The position numbers were made by a program, and so were the translations under genes. Below are positions 4,310 through 10,100 of a stretch of 10,917 bases of DNA, piece after piece. Location: contig JAVHPP010000107.1 in the NCBI GenBank assembly GCA_036170655.1, positions 1 through 10,917 on the forward strand, given 5' to 3'. Positions within the stretch are counted from its first letter, which is position 1. Each line of letters opens with the position of its first letter. The notes below the pieces were generated by a model. The model was given only the letters and a program-made list of their open reading frames with translations. It was not told where the DNA came from and did no database searches. The DNA is from Candidatus Zixiibacteriota bacterium (GTDB lineage: Bacteria > Zixibacteria > MSB-5A5 > WJJR01).

Positions 4310-5785
4310 ATGAGTGAGTTCATTACCCGCCGGCAGTTCCTGGGACACAGCATTCTGGCGACAACCGCGGTCGCCGTCTCGTCACTCGAGTTTCTGGATG
4401 TCACGAATGCGCGCGCCGCACGCGGTGGCGCGGGTGGAAAGGTGATCATTCTCGGTGCTGGTCTCGCCGGATTATCGGTCGGATACGAACTGACCCAGGC
4501 CGGCAACGACGTCGTGATCTTCGAGGCACGACCGTATGCCGGCGGTCGCGTGCACACGCTACGCAAACCATTCGCGGACGGGCTTTACGCCGAAGCCGGC
4601 GCGACGCGTATTCCTGAGGATCACGATCTGACCATGAAGTACGTCAAGCTGTTCGACCTCACGCTGGACGAGTTCCGCCCGATCGATCTTCTCGATGTTC
4701 AGTACATCCACGGAAAGCGAATCGTTGCGCATCACGGTGATCCGGTTGACTGGCCCGTGGACCTGACCCTTGAGGAGAAAGATCTCGGCCCGACCGGGCT
4801 TCGGCAGAAGTATATCAACCCGGTCCTGAGCGACATGGGGGATGTTTCATCGCCGGACTGGGTACCCCCCGATCAGGTGAAGAAGTACGATGACATGACA
4901 TGGATCGGCTTCTTGCGCGGCCAGGGCTTATCCCCCGGAGCGATTGAACTTCTCACCTTGGGTCACAGCGGAGGTATGGCTGACGAAGTCTCCGCGCTGC
5001 AGATGCTGCGTGTCTCGGCCCAAAGCCGGAAACGGCGGCAGATGTACAAAATCAGAGGCGGAAACGATCTGCTGCCACAAGCATTTGCATCACGATTGGC
5101 GAAGAAGATCCGCTACAGCACACCGGTCGTCAGGATCGATCAGGATGATCGGGGCGTTCGCGCGACCGTTTTGGACTCGGGGAAACAACAGATCGTCGAG
5201 GGTGCTCGGCTCATCTCCGCGATTCCATTCTCCGTCCTGAGAACCATCGAAATCAGTCCCAAGTTTTCTCCGGAGAAGCAGCGCGCGATTGACCAGTTGT
5301 GGTACACGTCAATCGCGCGTACCTACCTGCAAACGAAGAAGAGATTCTGGCTGGACGAGGGCGTGTCGGGTTTCGGCCGCACCGATCTTCCCATTCTGGA
5401 AACTTGGGACCTCAGTCACAATCTTCCGGGGGCGCATGGGATTCTGCTGGCCTATTCTTCGGGTGAACCCGCGAGAAGAGTGGCCGCGATGAGAGAGCCC
5501 GATCGCATATCCTTCGCGCTGGAACATATGGAACAGCTCTACCCCGGCCTCCATGAGCAGTACGAACTCGGCACATCCGTTTGCTGGGACGAGGAGCAGT
5601 GGACACGCGGGGGATGGGCATGGCTGAAGCCGGGCCAGGCCGCGTCGATCCTTCCCCATGTTGCGCGTCCCGAAGGACGAATCCACTTCGCAGGCGATCA
5701 CACGACCGCGTGGTCCTCATGGATGCAGGGGGCGCTGCAGTCGGGGAATCGGGTCGCCGCAGAGATCGCGTCCCTCTCACGTTGA
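4310..5785 (+). CDS. Tat-exported flavin monoamine oxidase / L-amino-acid oxidase family protein
   Basis: Twin-arginine 'TRRQFL' with a hydrophobic stretch and AxA; FAD-binding 'ILGAGLAGL'; 'FEARPYAGGRVHT'; 'AEAGATRIP'; C-terminal 'RIHFAGDHT...WMQGALQSG'. SD AAAGGA at 4296-4301. Confidence 0.92.
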   Translation: MSEFITRRQFLGHSILATTAVAVSSLEFLDVTNARAARGGAGGKVIILGAGLAGLSVGYELTQAGNDVVIFEARPYAGGRVHTLRKPFADGLYAEAGATRIPEDHDLTMKYVKLFDLTLDEFRPIDLLDVQYIHGKRIVAHHGDPVDWPVDLTLEEKDLGPTGLRQKYINPVLSDMGDVSSPDWVPPDQVKKYDDMTWIGFLRGQGLSPGAIELLTLGHSGGMADEVSALQMLRVSAQSRKRRQMYKIRGGNDLLPQAFASRLAKKIRYSTPVVRIDQDDRGVRATVLDSGKQQIVEGARLISAIPFSVLRTIEISPKFSPEKQRAIDQLWYTSIARTYLQTKKRFWLDEGVSGFGRTDLPILETWDLSHNLPGAHGILLAYSSGEPARRVAAMREPDRISFALEHMEQLYPGLHEQYELGTSVCWDEEQWTRGGWAWLKPGQAASILPHVARPEGRIHFAGDHTTAWSSWMQGALQSGNRVAAEIASLSR

Positions 5786-5789
5786 CGCA

Positions 5790-5820
5790 CAGCCGAAAAG
5801 TCCGGCTGGATAACTTTTAT
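5790..5820 (+). terminator. Possible weak intrinsic terminator after the oxidase gene
   Basis: Stem CAGCCG (5790-5795) / CGGCTG (5803-5808) starting 5 nt after the stop, followed by GATAACTTTTAT. The U-tract is short and offset from the stem. Confidence 0.3.
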
Positions 5821-5976
5821 GCAGACGTCCTCGCAGCGGTCCGAAAACAAGCCGGTGTTTGCAATATCTCTGCTCAATCCTTCCAGTCCTCGTCACGGAA
5901 TTGTCATCGATTATGATCCCTTGGCTGCGTGTCGTCATTTTGCGATACTTCGCGGGCGTGGAGCGCGTAGAACTTG

Positions 5977-6092: not shown

Positions 6093-7496
6093 ATGATCTC
6101 ATTCGGTGTGATCGGTGCGTCGGTGCGGGGGGGGAGTATCCAGCTTCTCGAGGCATTGACTGTTCCGTCGGATCAGCGCGGGGCAACCCTTGCGGCGCTG
6201 AAGGAGGCATGTGGATTTGCCGAACTGACGCCGGTCTTTACCTGCAACCGCGTGGAATTCTACTACGTCGTCGCCGAGGGCCCAGCCGGTATCAGCTATC
6301 GCAACCGACTGCTCGATTTCTTCCTCAAGGGTCACAATCAGATCACCTTTGGTCCGTCGGACATCTATTCCTACTCGGCGTTCCGGGCCCTCAAGCATCT
6401 CTACCGTGTCTCTGCCTCCCTCGATTCGATGGTCGTTGGCGAGGCCCAGATATTGGGCCAGGTCAAGGAAGCGGTCGCGGCGGCGCGAGAGACGGGTCTT
6501 TTGGGGCCACGCCTCGAGGCGATCTTCGCGGATGCCTTCCGTGTGGCCCGGAAGATTCGTCGAGACACACCGCTCGGTGAGTATGCCGTTTCCATGGCAA
6601 CGCTGGTCGCTGATGCTGTCGGCGAGTACATGACCAAATGGGGACCGGTCACGGTCGCTGTTGTGGGTGCAGGCCCCATGTCACGCAAACTGGCCGAACA
6701 TATCGGCAAGCTCGAAAACCTCAAACTGCTGTTTGTCAACCGTACTGTCGCGAAGGCCGAAGCGCTGGCGCAGGAGTTTGGGGGATGTGCCCTGTCACTC
6801 GATGAGTTTCTCGCACATCCTCCGTCCATTGATATCGTCTTCAGTTCCACCGGGTCGCCGGACATCTTGTTCGATCAGGAGAAGGTCGACCGTATCCGCT
6901 GGGAACGCGATTCGTTGTCGCCATTGTTCCTGATCGATCTGGCCATTCCGCGCGACATCGAGCCAGCCGTTGGCACAATGTCCAATGTCGTGTTGCGAGA
7001 CATTCCCTACTTCCAGTCGACCGCAGACAAGAATCGGCGCGCCCGTTTCGTGGCGGTCGATCAGGCCGAACAAATCGTCGAGCAGGAGATCGCCCACGCG
7101 CACCGGGAGAACGCCGAACGGCAATTTCGTCCCGTCTTTTCCTCGACGTTGAACGAAGGTCTCGCCTATGCGCACGCGGGCCTGGACAAGCTGTTCTCCA
7201 CACGCCTTGACCACCTGTCCCCGCAGGACCGGGATGCCATCGCCTATTGGGTGGAAAAACTCGTTCGCTACACCAACCAACTCCCTGTCAGCGCGCTGGC
7301 GGAGCAGGCCGATACCTCTCGCGGTGACTGTTCCATGATTGCCGGCTACGGCTGCATGCAAACCCGTGCCGTTCCCGAACTCGCGACCGATGATCCGCTG
7401 GCCAACCGCTGCGCGCAACGCCAGGGACAGCCCTGTATCTTAGATGGACAACCTGCCGAGCCGGCGCCTGGCGAGTCTACCGGGACGGGCCGATGA
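6093..7496 (+). CDS. hemA: Glutamyl-tRNA reductase with a Cys-rich C-terminal extension
   Basis: Catalytic 'TCNRVEFY'; 'HLYRVSASLDSMVVGEAQILGQVK'; NADPH-binding 'VVGAGPM' and 'NRT'; 'DLAIPRDIE'. First gene of the hem cluster. Confidence 0.96.
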   Translation: MISFGVIGASVRGGSIQLLEALTVPSDQRGATLAALKEACGFAELTPVFTCNRVEFYYVVAEGPAGISYRNRLLDFFLKGHNQITFGPSDIYSYSAFRALKHLYRVSASLDSMVVGEAQILGQVKEAVAAARETGLLGPRLEAIFADAFRVARKIRRDTPLGEYAVSMATLVADAVGEYMTKWGPVTVAVVGAGPMSRKLAEHIGKLENLKLLFVNRTVAKAEALAQEFGGCALSLDEFLAHPPSIDIVFSSTGSPDILFDQEKVDRIRWERDSLSPLFLIDLAIPRDIEPAVGTMSNVVLRDIPYFQSTADKNRRARFVAVDQAEQIVEQEIAHAHRENAERQFRPVFSSTLNEGLAYAHAGLDKLFSTRLDHLSPQDRDAIAYWVEKLVRYTNQLPVSALAEQADTSRGDCSMIAGYGCMQTRAVPELATDDPLANRCAQRQGQPCILDGQPAEPAPGESTGTGR

Positions 7497-9136
7497 ATCT
7501 GGGCACGCGCGGGAGCGATCTGGCGTTGTGGCAGGCCCGCCTTGTGCGGGCCTTGCTGCTCCAGAAGGCCGGTATTGATGCTGAATTGGTCGTGATCAAG
7601 ACGCAAGGCGACAAAGACCAAGTCGCCACCTTCGACAAGATGGAGGGCAAGGGATTCTTCACCAAGGAAATCGAAGATGCGTTGTTGAACCATACCATCG
7701 ATATTGCCGTCCATTCTCTCAAAGACCTCCAGACCCAGATGCCGGCAGGACTGGCGATCGGCGGCCTGATTGAACGCGCGGACCGACGCGACATACTGCT
7801 CGTCCGCCCTGATGCTGCGGATGATTCGTTGACGCTGCACTTGCGCGAATCGGCCAAAGTGGGAACCACCTCCGCGCGGCGCGTCTCGCAGTTGCATTTT
7901 CTGCGTCCGGATCTGCACGTTCTCCCGTTGCGCGGCAACGTGCCCACGCGTCTGCGGAAGCTGCGCGAAGGCCACTACGATGCTATCCTGGTCGCGGCCG
8001 CAGGCGTGGAACGCCTGGCCCTGTCACTGGATGGGCTTGCCGTCTTTCGGCTGCATGAGAGTCTGCTGGTTCCCGCGCCGGGGCAGGGGGCCTTGGCCGT
8101 CCAGATTCGCAGCGATGATCAGCAAACCAAGCGTGCCGTCGCGTTGATTGCCGACACGGCGTTGATGGATGTCGTCTGGCTCGAACGCGAAATCTTGCGG
8201 CGTCTCGAGGGCGGCTGTCAGCTGCCGTTGGGAACATGTGTCGATCGCATACCGGGCGGCTTCCGCCTGAGCACCTATCTCGGCGGCCCCGATTTGCGAA
8301 GGCCGCGGCGTTTCATCATCGCCGGACCTGACCGGGCCGCGTTGGCGGGCAAAGCCATTGCGTATCTCAAGGGGGAGGCGGTCGCGGGATTTGACCGGGA
8401 ACGGTGCGTCCGCCTGTGGATTACGCGCGAACCCGCGCGCGCGGCGGAGTTCTGCAATGACTGCGACACCGCACGTTTCGACATCGCCGCGGTTCCGGTG
8501 TTCTACGCCGTCAGCGCCGGTTCCTCAGATCAGCATCGACGCATTCTGGACCGGTTGTCCACCTATGAATGGATCTTCTTCACCAGCCAGACCACGGTCA
8601 CCGAGTTCGCTGAGTTGATGCGCGCCAACAACGCCGTGCTGGGGGCGCAGACGAAAATCGCCGCTGTCGGCAATAAGACGGCCCGTGCCATTCAACAGCA
8701 CGGCTGGCGTCTCGACTTTGTGTCTCCGATTGCCGACGCAGAGTCTCTGGCTTTGGAATTTCAGTCGGCCATGCCCACCCCGGCTGGACCGATTCTCTTT
8801 CCCTGCGGCGCCAGGGCGTCAACCGATCTGGAGGAACTCGCCGCGGCGAACGGATATCAGATTGAGCGTTTTGTCTGCTACGATACCATCGAGCATCCCG
8901 ATCTTGGGCAGACATTGATGGCGTTGCCCGACCCCGATGCCGTCGTCTTCACCAGCGCTAGTGCAGTGAACTTTTTGATGGCGCGACGGTCTTTACCCAC
9001 GCATATCCCTGTCGTGTCGATTGGCCCTTCGACCACTGATGCGCTTTTGGCCGCCGGCTTCCCGATTGTGTGGGAGGCGGCTGACCGTTCACTCAAGGGC
9101 TTGGCCGAGGTCATCCATGGACTATTCCCTGAATAG
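7493..9136 (+). CDS. hemCD: Fused hydroxymethylbilane synthase (HemC) / uroporphyrinogen-III synthase (HemD)
   Basis: HemC motifs 'GTRGSDLALWQA', 'KGFFTKEIE', 'AVHSLKD', 'GTTSARR', 'LRGNVPTRL', 'PAPGQGAL' and 'LEGGC' (cofactor Cys). From about residue 307 (nt 8411), HemD motifs 'WITREP', 'WIFFTSQ', 'AAVGNKTA', 'YDT', 'VFTSASAV' and 'SIGPSTT'. No stop between the two parts. ATGA overlap with hemA. Confidence 0.94.
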   Translation: MNLGTRGSDLALWQARLVRALLLQKAGIDAELVVIKTQGDKDQVATFDKMEGKGFFTKEIEDALLNHTIDIAVHSLKDLQTQMPAGLAIGGLIERADRRDILLVRPDAADDSLTLHLRESAKVGTTSARRVSQLHFLRPDLHVLPLRGNVPTRLRKLREGHYDAILVAAAGVERLALSLDGLAVFRLHESLLVPAPGQGALAVQIRSDDQQTKRAVALIADTALMDVVWLEREILRRLEGGCQLPLGTCVDRIPGGFRLSTYLGGPDLRRPRRFIIAGPDRAALAGKAIAYLKGEAVAGFDRERCVRLWITREPARAAEFCNDCDTARFDIAAVPVFYAVSAGSSDQHRRILDRLSTYEWIFFTSQTTVTEFAELMRANNAVLGAQTKIAAVGNKTARAIQQHGWRLDFVSPIADAESLALEFQSAMPTPAGPILFPCGARASTDLEELAAANGYQIERFVCYDTIEHPDLGQTLMALPDPDAVVFTSASAVNFLMARRSLPTHIPVVSIGPSTTDALLAAGFPIVWEAADRSLKGLAEVIHGLFPE

Positions 9137-10100
9137 ACGGCCGCGCCGCCTGCGTCGCAATCCCCTGATTCGCGGACTGGTCGCGGAGACCATTCTTTCC
9201 CCTCAGGGCATGATTCAGCCATACTTTGTGGGGCAGAAATCCGACGAACGCTTTCCCATTCCGGGAATGCCTGGGATTTGTCGCGAATCGCCGGACTTGC
9301 TGATGGAGACCATTCGGCAGGATCTCCGCTTGGGGATCAGGCGCATCATGCTCTTTGGCGTGACCGATCGCAAGTCCGCGAATGCCGAATCCGCCTATGC
9401 CGACAACAACCCCGTCGTCGTGGCGATACAGCAGTTACGGCGGGAGTTTGGCGCTGATCTCTTCATCTCTGCCGATGTCTGTCTGTGTGCGTATACCGAC
9501 TCCGGCCATTGCGGTGTGTTGCGTGGCGGCGAAGTCGACAATGACGCATCGCTGGATGTCCTCGCGAAGATGGCGGTGCGTCTGGCCCAGGCGGGCGTGG
9601 ACTGGGTCGCGCCATCCGACATGATGGACGGTCGGATCGGCGCGGTGCGTCAGGCCCTCGACGGTGCCGGGTTCACCACTACCGGCATTCTCGCTTATAC
9701 GGCGAAGTACGCCTCCGCCTACTATGGCCCGTTCCGTGGCGCGGCCGAATCCGCGCCCCAGCATGGTGATCGCAAGTCCTACCAGATGGACTGGCGCAAT
9801 CGCCGCGAAGCGCGGCTGGAGGCACAACTCGATTTGGACGAAGGTGCTGATGTGATCATGGTCAAGCCGGCCCTGGCCTACCTCGATGTCATTGCCGATT
9901 TGGCCGCGGCCACCGATGTGCCCATCGCGGCCTACAATGTCTCCGGTGAATATGCCGCGGTCAAACTGCTGGTCAAAGAAGGCTTTGCCGAAGAACGAGA
10001 TCTCGTTTTGGAGAACCTGACTGCCATCACTCGCGCCGGTGCATCCGTGATCCTGACATACCACCTCCGCGACATCCTGCGTGAAAAATGGCTGTCGTAG
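9117..10100 (+). CDS. hemB: Porphobilinogen synthase (ALA dehydratase), Zn-dependent type
   Basis: 'RPRRLRR'; Zn-ligand motif 'DVCLCAYTDSGHCG'; 'APSDMMDGRI'; 'AKYASAYYGPFR'; 'MVKP'; 'AYNVSGEY'. The start is reassigned from 9021 to ATG 9117 (GAGG at 9107-9110), overlapping the end of hemCD by 20 nt. Confidence 0.97.
   Translation: MDYSLNRRPRRLRRNPLIRGLVAETILSPQGMIQPYFVGQKSDERFPIPGMPGICRESPDLLMETIRQDLRLGIRRIMLFGVTDRKSANAESAYADNNPVVVAIQQLRREFGADLFISADVCLCAYTDSGHCGVLRGGEVDNDASLDVLAKMAVRLAQAGVDWVAPSDMMDGRIGAVRQALDGAGFTTTGILAYTAKYASAYYGPFRGAAESAPQHGDRKSYQMDWRNRREARLEAQLDLDEGADVIMVKPALAYLDVIADLAAATDVPIAAYNVSGEYAAVKLLVKEGFAEERDLVLENLTAITRAGASVILTYHLRDILREKWLS

Follow-up and report, generated by a model that had tools for sequence, protein, structure and literature searches.

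What role is played by the end of a glutamyl-tRNA reductase (GluTR, the product of hemA) that carries a tail with four cysteines? The question is raised by the hemA gene of a Candidatus Zixiibacteriota bacterium (GenBank assembly GCA_036170655.1; a 2.6-Mb genome in 184 contigs), which lies on the forward strand of contig JAVHPP010000107.1 (C107), the 10,917 nucleotides of which were analysed as a whole and are referred to here as the window. GluTR is the main control point for haem and chlorophyll precursors in most bacteria, archaea and plants. A sequence-only reading of the window had described Cys413, Cys421, Cys440 and Cys448 of the 467-amino-acid protein as two copies of a C-x4-G-x2-C motif, and had proposed that they form a built-in sensor of iron, haem or oxygen status. 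Translation of the open reading frame (ORF) bore out its length, the spacing of the four cysteines (C-x7-C-x18-C-x7-C) and the fit of both halves to C-x4-G-x2-C, followed in each case by methionine or isoleucine. The codons lie at 7329-7331 (C413), 7353-7355 (C421), 7410-7412 (C440) and 7434-7436 (C448), within a segment running from residue 405, which begins at 7305, to residue 467, which ends at 7493. The remaining cysteines of HemA are those at positions 40, 51 (catalytic, in the TCNR motif) and 232.

Conservation, distribution and origin of the tail

A whole-protein search with HemA, in which each row is a HemA cluster, separated homologues with and without the tail sharply: among the best 120 of 4816 matches, the four cysteines are carried by 37 of 37 homologues with at least 50% identity and by 0 of 83 with 45% identity or less. 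Full-length orthologues from the same family, at 53-75% identity, were recovered in a search of 41 related genomes, and every one of their C-termini keeps the four cysteines. All close orthologues have thus retained both the tail and its cysteines, one of the points on which the sequence-only reading had made its proposal depend. In 12 of 12 aligned family tails, D407, C413, A417, G418, Y419, C421, A437, R439, C440 and C448 are invariant. Among 40 aligned rows, C413, A417, G418, C421 and C440 are invariant, D407, R425, P435, A437, R439 and C448 are conserved at 90% or more, and position 419 is always aromatic (Y in 32 rows, F in 8). The fourth cysteine, C448, is found in its column in 38 of the 40 rows; P0013 and P0024 have a cysteine one or two residues earlier.

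Every one of the four cysteine positions is encoded by TGT in some and by TGC in others of 13 loci, which argues that the residue rather than the DNA is selected. The linker between the two cysteine pairs ranges in these loci from 17 to 26 residues and is variable in sequence as well, and such a combination of invariant cysteines with a variable linker is compatible with ligands kept by selection on either side of an unconstrained loop. Judged from these alignments, the four-cysteine pattern is more than chance, and the tail is maintained under purifying selection in one family. That it represents a neutral, lineage-specific extension without function, as the disorder predicted for it by AlphaFold2 and the existence of sister clades without it might suggest, is hardly credible: the four cysteines and six more positions show little or no change while their codons turn over synonymously, although the proteins as a whole share only about 50% identity.

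The history of the tail was traced by maximum likelihood on 118 rows of HemA (P0002, P0014, P0016-18 and two fragments, P0042 and P0100, were omitted). To keep the tail from influencing the tree, only the first 400 residues entered the calculation. The tail carriers, 36 of the 118 rows, form one clade with a support of 100 in the Shimodaira-Hasegawa-like approximate likelihood ratio test (SH-aLRT), and one change is needed to account for them. The tail arose once. A scan of 285 genomes of the phylum with a profile of the tail detected it in the genome of the window and in 13 of the 14 further members of its family; outside the family (270 genomes from 19 families) there was a single marginal match (E 7e-4), to an open frame of 53 residues. 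The one genome of the family in which the tail was missing (G007, 100% complete) yielded no hemA by protein search, by the tail profile or by the GlutR_N profile PF05201, so that every hemA found in the family bears the tail, which is confined to this one family of uncultured bacteria. In G007, as one member of its genus, the C5 pathway may have been lost.

Other cysteine-containing ends were observed among HemA proteins of the same type. The protein L017 of a neighbouring family (genome G016) has a tail of the form C-x7-C-x3-C, again with C-x4-G-x2-C spacing; a search with this tail matched only itself and gave no evidence of its conservation. P0049 has a single C-x7-C at its end, and P0044, P0048 and P0054 end in A-P-P-x-C.

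The absence of a described domain in the tail, already suspected from the sequence alone, was upheld by searches of Pfam, of the PDB sequences and of 1.84 billion representative proteins, in which only HemA was found as a real match. The tail profile gave five matches among the representatives, of which two were real, both of them HemA. The repeat proteins P0016-P0018 also matched the profile and were judged spurious after their sequences had been read. Searching 5.8 billion clustered proteins with the tail only gave 47 candidates, from which 12 proteins were retained, all of them HemA of 458-472 residues. Within the reach of these comparisons, the tail belongs to no described family and is found in no other protein; the motif of its first loop occurs in no other ORF of the same genome. 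In the literature searched (titles and openings of abstracts, and passages of reviews on haem biosynthesis from 2026, on tetrapyrroles from 2020 and on bacterial regulation from 2024), no description was found of a GluTR with an iron-sulphur (Fe-S) cluster, with an intrinsic cysteine or metal module, or with a C-terminal tail of this kind. The controls of GluTR named in these review passages consist of separate proteins, haem binding or covalent modification.

The enzyme body and the architecture of the tail

The hemA ORF encodes a complete GluTR (Table 1). It scores 238.2 bits against the hemA equivalog TIGR01035 of NCBIfam (cut-off 209.55), with residues 6-412 aligned (profile 403 of 416), and it agrees with GluTR on each testable point save a complete match to the dimerisation domain PF00745, which is recognised at residues 324-414 with 21.6 bits, just below the cut-off of 22.9, over profile positions 1-88 of 99. 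The residues T50, C51, N52 and R53 of the catalytic motif are invariant in 30 aligned rows, and C51 is retained in 118 of 118 homologues. Reduction of Glu-tRNA(Glu) to glutamate-1-semialdehyde is predicted from the context of the gene, with hemCD, hemB and hemL located downstream. AlphaFold2 was run twice, with 30 aligned sequences and then with the 40 tail-bearing rows, and in both cases the enzyme body folded well (mean predicted local distance difference test, pLDDT, of 84 and 80.8), the last confident helix comprising residues 377-405. Foldseek matched the model to 1gpj at E 7.7e-24 and to Arabidopsis structures at a template-modelling (TM) score of about 0.6.

The same layout of catalytic, NADPH and spinal/dimerisation parts is seen in canonical GluTR (HemA/GtrR), as represented by 1GPJ of Methanopyrus kandleri and by 4N7R, 5CHE and 5YJL of Arabidopsis. 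Unlike these proteins, which have a terminal helix, the HemA of the window has a 60-residue four-cysteine tail in its place. Both solved GluTRs lack the tail by sequence, and their alignment with the HemA of the window extends only up to residues 335-345. Past the position of residue ~405, canonical GluTRs feature one more short loop and an amphipathic helix, and in the alignment with them the first cysteine loop occupies the position of this usual last helix. The tail thus replaces the last helix, with a net gain of about 40 residues. The earlier description of a tail that begins past the normal end of GluTR needs correcting in this respect, since TIGR01035 aligns as far as residue 412 and the last helix is replaced. 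The tail is genuine, as had been argued, and is translated in frame. The overlap with hemCD is conserved in relatives.

The two halves of the tail can be written in register as C-[AS]-x3-G-x2-C-aliphatic, in line with the internal duplication proposed from the sequence, but statistical support for it is weak (hhalign probability 9.6%, P 0.0034, only 14 columns). Of 40 rows, 26 have the glycine of the second half. For segments as short as these, the resemblance of the two C-x4-G-x2-C units is no more than suggestive of an internal duplication. The closest relatives, P0003-P0009, have a fifth and sometimes a sixth cysteine near the C-terminus, which the HemA of the window does not have, and in some members of the clade (P0026, P0028, P0035 and L008) a histidine-rich end directly follows the fourth cysteine.

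Table 1. Location of hemA, of the parts of its product and of the adjoining hemCD gene in the window.
Feature	Position	Strand	Basis or remark
hemA, glutamyl-tRNA reductase (GluTR/HemA), 467 aa plus stop	6093..7496	+	ORF translation, TIGR01035, Pfam, Foldseek
Catalytic domain, residues 7-159, active-site Cys51 in TCNR motif	6111..6569	+	PF05201 (GlutR_N), E 1.8e-33
NADPH-binding domain, residues 186-305	6648..7007	+	PF01488 (Shikimate_DH), E 1.2e-26
Spinal helix and dimerisation helices, residues 318-405	7044..7307	+	AlphaFold2 helices 318-370 and 377-405; PF00745
Family-specific tail, residues 406-467	7308..7493	+	pLDDT <50 in both models; tail profile matches only HemA of one family
First cysteine loop, C413-x7-C421 (CSMIAGYGC)	7329..7355	+	C413, A417, G418 and C421 invariant in 40 rows
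Linker, residues 422-439; variable middle, conserved R425 and P435-x-A437-x-R439 leading into the third cysteine	7356..7409	+	
Second cysteine loop, C440-x7-C448 (CAQRQGQPC)	7410..7436	+	C440 invariant; C448 in its column in 38/40 rows
Variable C-terminal end, residues 449-467	7437..7493	+	Neither length nor sequence conserved
hemCD fusion (hydroxymethylbilane synthase and uroporphyrinogen-III synthase), 547 aa	7493..9136	+	PF01379, PF03900, PF02602

Two further features distinguish the enzyme body. The N-terminus of this HemA lineage (window 6093-6170) is of an unusual type, M-[IL]-S-F-G-V-I-G-x-S (MISFGVIG in the query), and the C-G-I-N-H-K type, which is more usual, is found in other genomes of the class, so that the class contains two types of HemA. 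Cys40 (window 6210-6212) is invariant in the 36 tail-bearing HemAs and found in 8 of 82 others, and is one of 12 clade-specific signature positions within the body of the enzyme.

Candidate roles of the tail

HemA is a cytoplasmic enzyme, and conserved sets of four cysteines in the cytoplasm usually bind metal. Four invariant cysteines, accompanied by an invariant Ala-Gly-aromatic motif and by arginine neighbours and separated by a free linker, would most likely constitute a metal site. We consider it somewhat better than an even bet that the tail binds a metal at all. Our working proposal, which draws on analogy and to which we give rather less than an even chance, is that the tail may bind a metal centre through which iron or redox status would act on the first enzyme of haem synthesis, be it on its stability, its dimer state or its activity. 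With respect to the cofactor, an Fe-S cluster would be the first guess and zinc the second. Within this proposal, an Fe-S cluster with a regulatory role is a plausible but doubtful refinement; a stabilising or regulatory role for such a cluster is favoured because of the analogy with the [2Fe-2S] extension of ferrochelatase.

Some ferrochelatases carry a [2Fe-2S] cluster on a C-terminal extension. Like the HemA tail, this extension is a lineage-restricted, cysteine-bearing C-terminus on an enzyme of the haem pathway, dispensable for the chemistry in other lineages. It has been proposed to link the stability of the enzyme to the supply of iron or Fe-S clusters or to nitric oxide (NO), and may serve in this respect as a model for the HemA tail. 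The two cases differ in that ferrochelatase is another enzyme at the opposite end of the pathway, in the spacing of the cysteines, and in that a cluster on the HemA tail is only putative. The tail profile matched no ferrochelatase among the PDB sequences.

GluTR dimerises through its C-terminal domain, according to the excerpts of the literature covered here, and the two tails should therefore lie near the dimer axis. The four thiolates would form one Cys4 site at the apex of the dimer, either within one subunit or shared by both across the two-fold axis, near which their C-termini are expected. In such a scheme the tail would fold only with metal bound, and loss of the metal under iron shortage, or upon exposure to oxidants or NO, would lead to its unfolding. 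This would in turn lower the activity or the lifetime of GluTR, thereby throttling the supply of 5-aminolevulinate (ALA). In its most specific form, the idea is that the GluTR of this family of Zixibacteria, as the first committed enzyme of the C5 tetrapyrrole pathway, has an Fe-S cluster of its own, bound by the Cys4 tail at the apex of the dimer. The enzyme would then respond directly to oxidants or to the supply of iron and Fe-S clusters, and would gate ALA synthesis without a separate regulator. In this form the idea is on the unlikely side. If true, it would represent the first GluTR with a metal cluster, in organisms making cytochromes with dozens of haems. More generally, a cysteine or metal module built into GluTR would, if confirmed, couple the first step of haem synthesis to iron or redox state in a new way, as a counterpart at the start of the pathway to the Fe-S extension that some ferrochelatases have at its end.

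The genome (G000) contains 15 crude ORFs with at least three CxxCH motifs (contigs C50, C59, C49, C145 and C19), of which the largest has 42. The latter is a 1128-amino-acid ORF on contig C50, with neighbours that have 20, 17 and 11 such motifs, which suggests a large multihaem cytochrome cluster. Given many multihaem cytochromes, the demand for haem and iron should be high, a weak hint toward a metal-dependent control of GluTR. The histidine-rich ends found after the fourth cysteine in some members are a further weak hint in this direction, as is the use of the C-terminal dimerisation domain of plant GluTR for regulatory docking, by FLU (PMC4726326).

Several observations weigh against a metal-binding regulatory tail. 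Sister lineages with the same type of HemA lack the tail, and it is therefore not needed for catalysis. Residues 405-467 were predicted with a pLDDT below 50 in both AlphaFold2 runs and the cysteines were not seen to converge, which speaks neither for nor against their clustering; the tail could be intrinsically disordered. Searched against the PDB sequences, the tail profile reached a best E of 0.36 (StAR protein) and found no known metal-binding domain, and against Pfam at E up to 10 it gave chance matches only (Ice_nucleation, PDIA6_C). In the ESM Atlas, queried with residues 400-458 of the homologue P0012, no score exceeded 0.84, which is under the threshold for a lead. Moreover, C-x7-C is not a classical spacing for Fe-S clusters or zinc knuckles, and the sensing role is pure analogy.

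Some of the same evidence bears on a structural role of the metal. The tail might be a Cys4 zinc mini-domain that replaces the lost terminal helix and braces the dimerisation domain without any sensing. The location of the first cysteine loop at the position of the canonical last helix, the strict conservation of the Cys4 pattern and the histidine-rich ends of some members are all consistent with this alternative, as is the unfolded state of the tail when modelled by AlphaFold2 without metal, which is often the case for small zinc modules. However, the tail is without a CxxC knuckle, C-x7-C is unusual for zinc ribbons, and no likeness to any zinc domain was detected in the PDB sequences or in Pfam. 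We regard structural zinc as unlikely, and note that the present data do not separate zinc from Fe-S.

Alternatively, the two cysteine pairs with their fixed internal spacing could constitute a thiol-disulfide redox switch, in which both C-x7-C pairs form disulfides when oxidised and so alter the activity, dimerisation or turnover of GluTR. A switch of this kind rarely needs four invariant cysteines together with invariant Ala-Gly-aromatic and arginine neighbours, however, and the tail has no thioredoxin-like motif, which makes this explanation improbable. The presumably mostly anoxic habitat of Zixibacteria would also count against it. In its favour, thiol-based control of GluTR, with NTRC/thioredoxin acting on cysteines, has been proposed in plants (PMC3778395). 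Control of plant GluTR, by FLU or, as proposed, through thiols, acts by way of separate proteins and scattered cysteines, whereas in the HemA of the window a Cys4 module is fused to the enzyme.

Binding of haem through a cysteine thiolate would provide direct end-product feedback on GluTR, and several bacterial GluTRs, including those of S. aureus and M. tuberculosis, have been reported to bind haem (PMC10991733, in the portion of the text consulted). The same portion describes HemX, haem binding, phosphorylation and pupylation as controls of bacterial GluTR. These post-translational controls, too, would bear on how much GluTR is present or how active it is, and an intrinsic metal or cysteine-cluster tail is not mentioned in that portion. 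One thiolate would suffice to bind haem, yet four are invariant here. Haem binding through Cys-Pro motifs has found no support: across the 40 rows, the commonest residues following the four cysteines in turn are A/S, V/M/I, A/S/T/G and L/I/V/R, with proline among them in no case. With no Cys-Pro haem regulatory motif in the tail, haem binding appears very improbable.

The hem operon and the rest of the window

The hem genes are arranged in the order hemA-hemCD-hemB-hemL. The ATG of hemCD at 7493 overlaps the TGA of hemA as ATGA, and this start is sound, since the Pfam match to HemC begins at residue 2. Both the hemCD fusion and its overlap or abutment with the hemA stop are kept in family relatives. 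The translational coupling of hemA and hemCD across the family also bears on a further explanation, in which the tail would serve to dock a partner while its cysteines shape the surface. Such a partner might be tRNA-Glu, HemL, HemCD with its coupled translation, a protease adaptor or another regulator. The conserved Arg425 and Arg439, which flank the loops, would fit such a function, and in plants the C-terminal dimerisation domain of GluTR is a regulatory docking site, bound by the regulator FLU (PMC4726326). Relatives of FLU or GBP were not found here, no search aimed at them having been made. Nevertheless, no partner was found, and no gene besides hemCD is conserved beside hemA in the loci compared; docking is decidedly improbable as the role of the tail.

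For hemB, the mechanically defined ORF (9021-10100) begins at a TTG at 9021, and the alternative ATG at 9117 gives MDYSLNRRPRRLRRNP. The ALAD profile begins at residue 39 of the long ORF, so that the real start is probably 9117, with an overlap of 20 bases with the end of hemCD.

Upstream of hemA, a gene of the flavin amine-oxidase family (window 4310-5785) reaches no NCBIfam cut-off. It was considered as a linked partner and rejected, being located beside hemA in no locus of the relatives. A search of the window against Rfam gave no match. The amine-oxidase gene is followed by a terminator-like hairpin (5790-5808), and a promoter-like site (5890-5917) precedes hemA; both are consensus matches only, and together they suggest that the hem genes are transcribed as a separate unit. 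Positions 1-2046 of the window hold a histidine kinase fragment and a sigma-54 response regulator.

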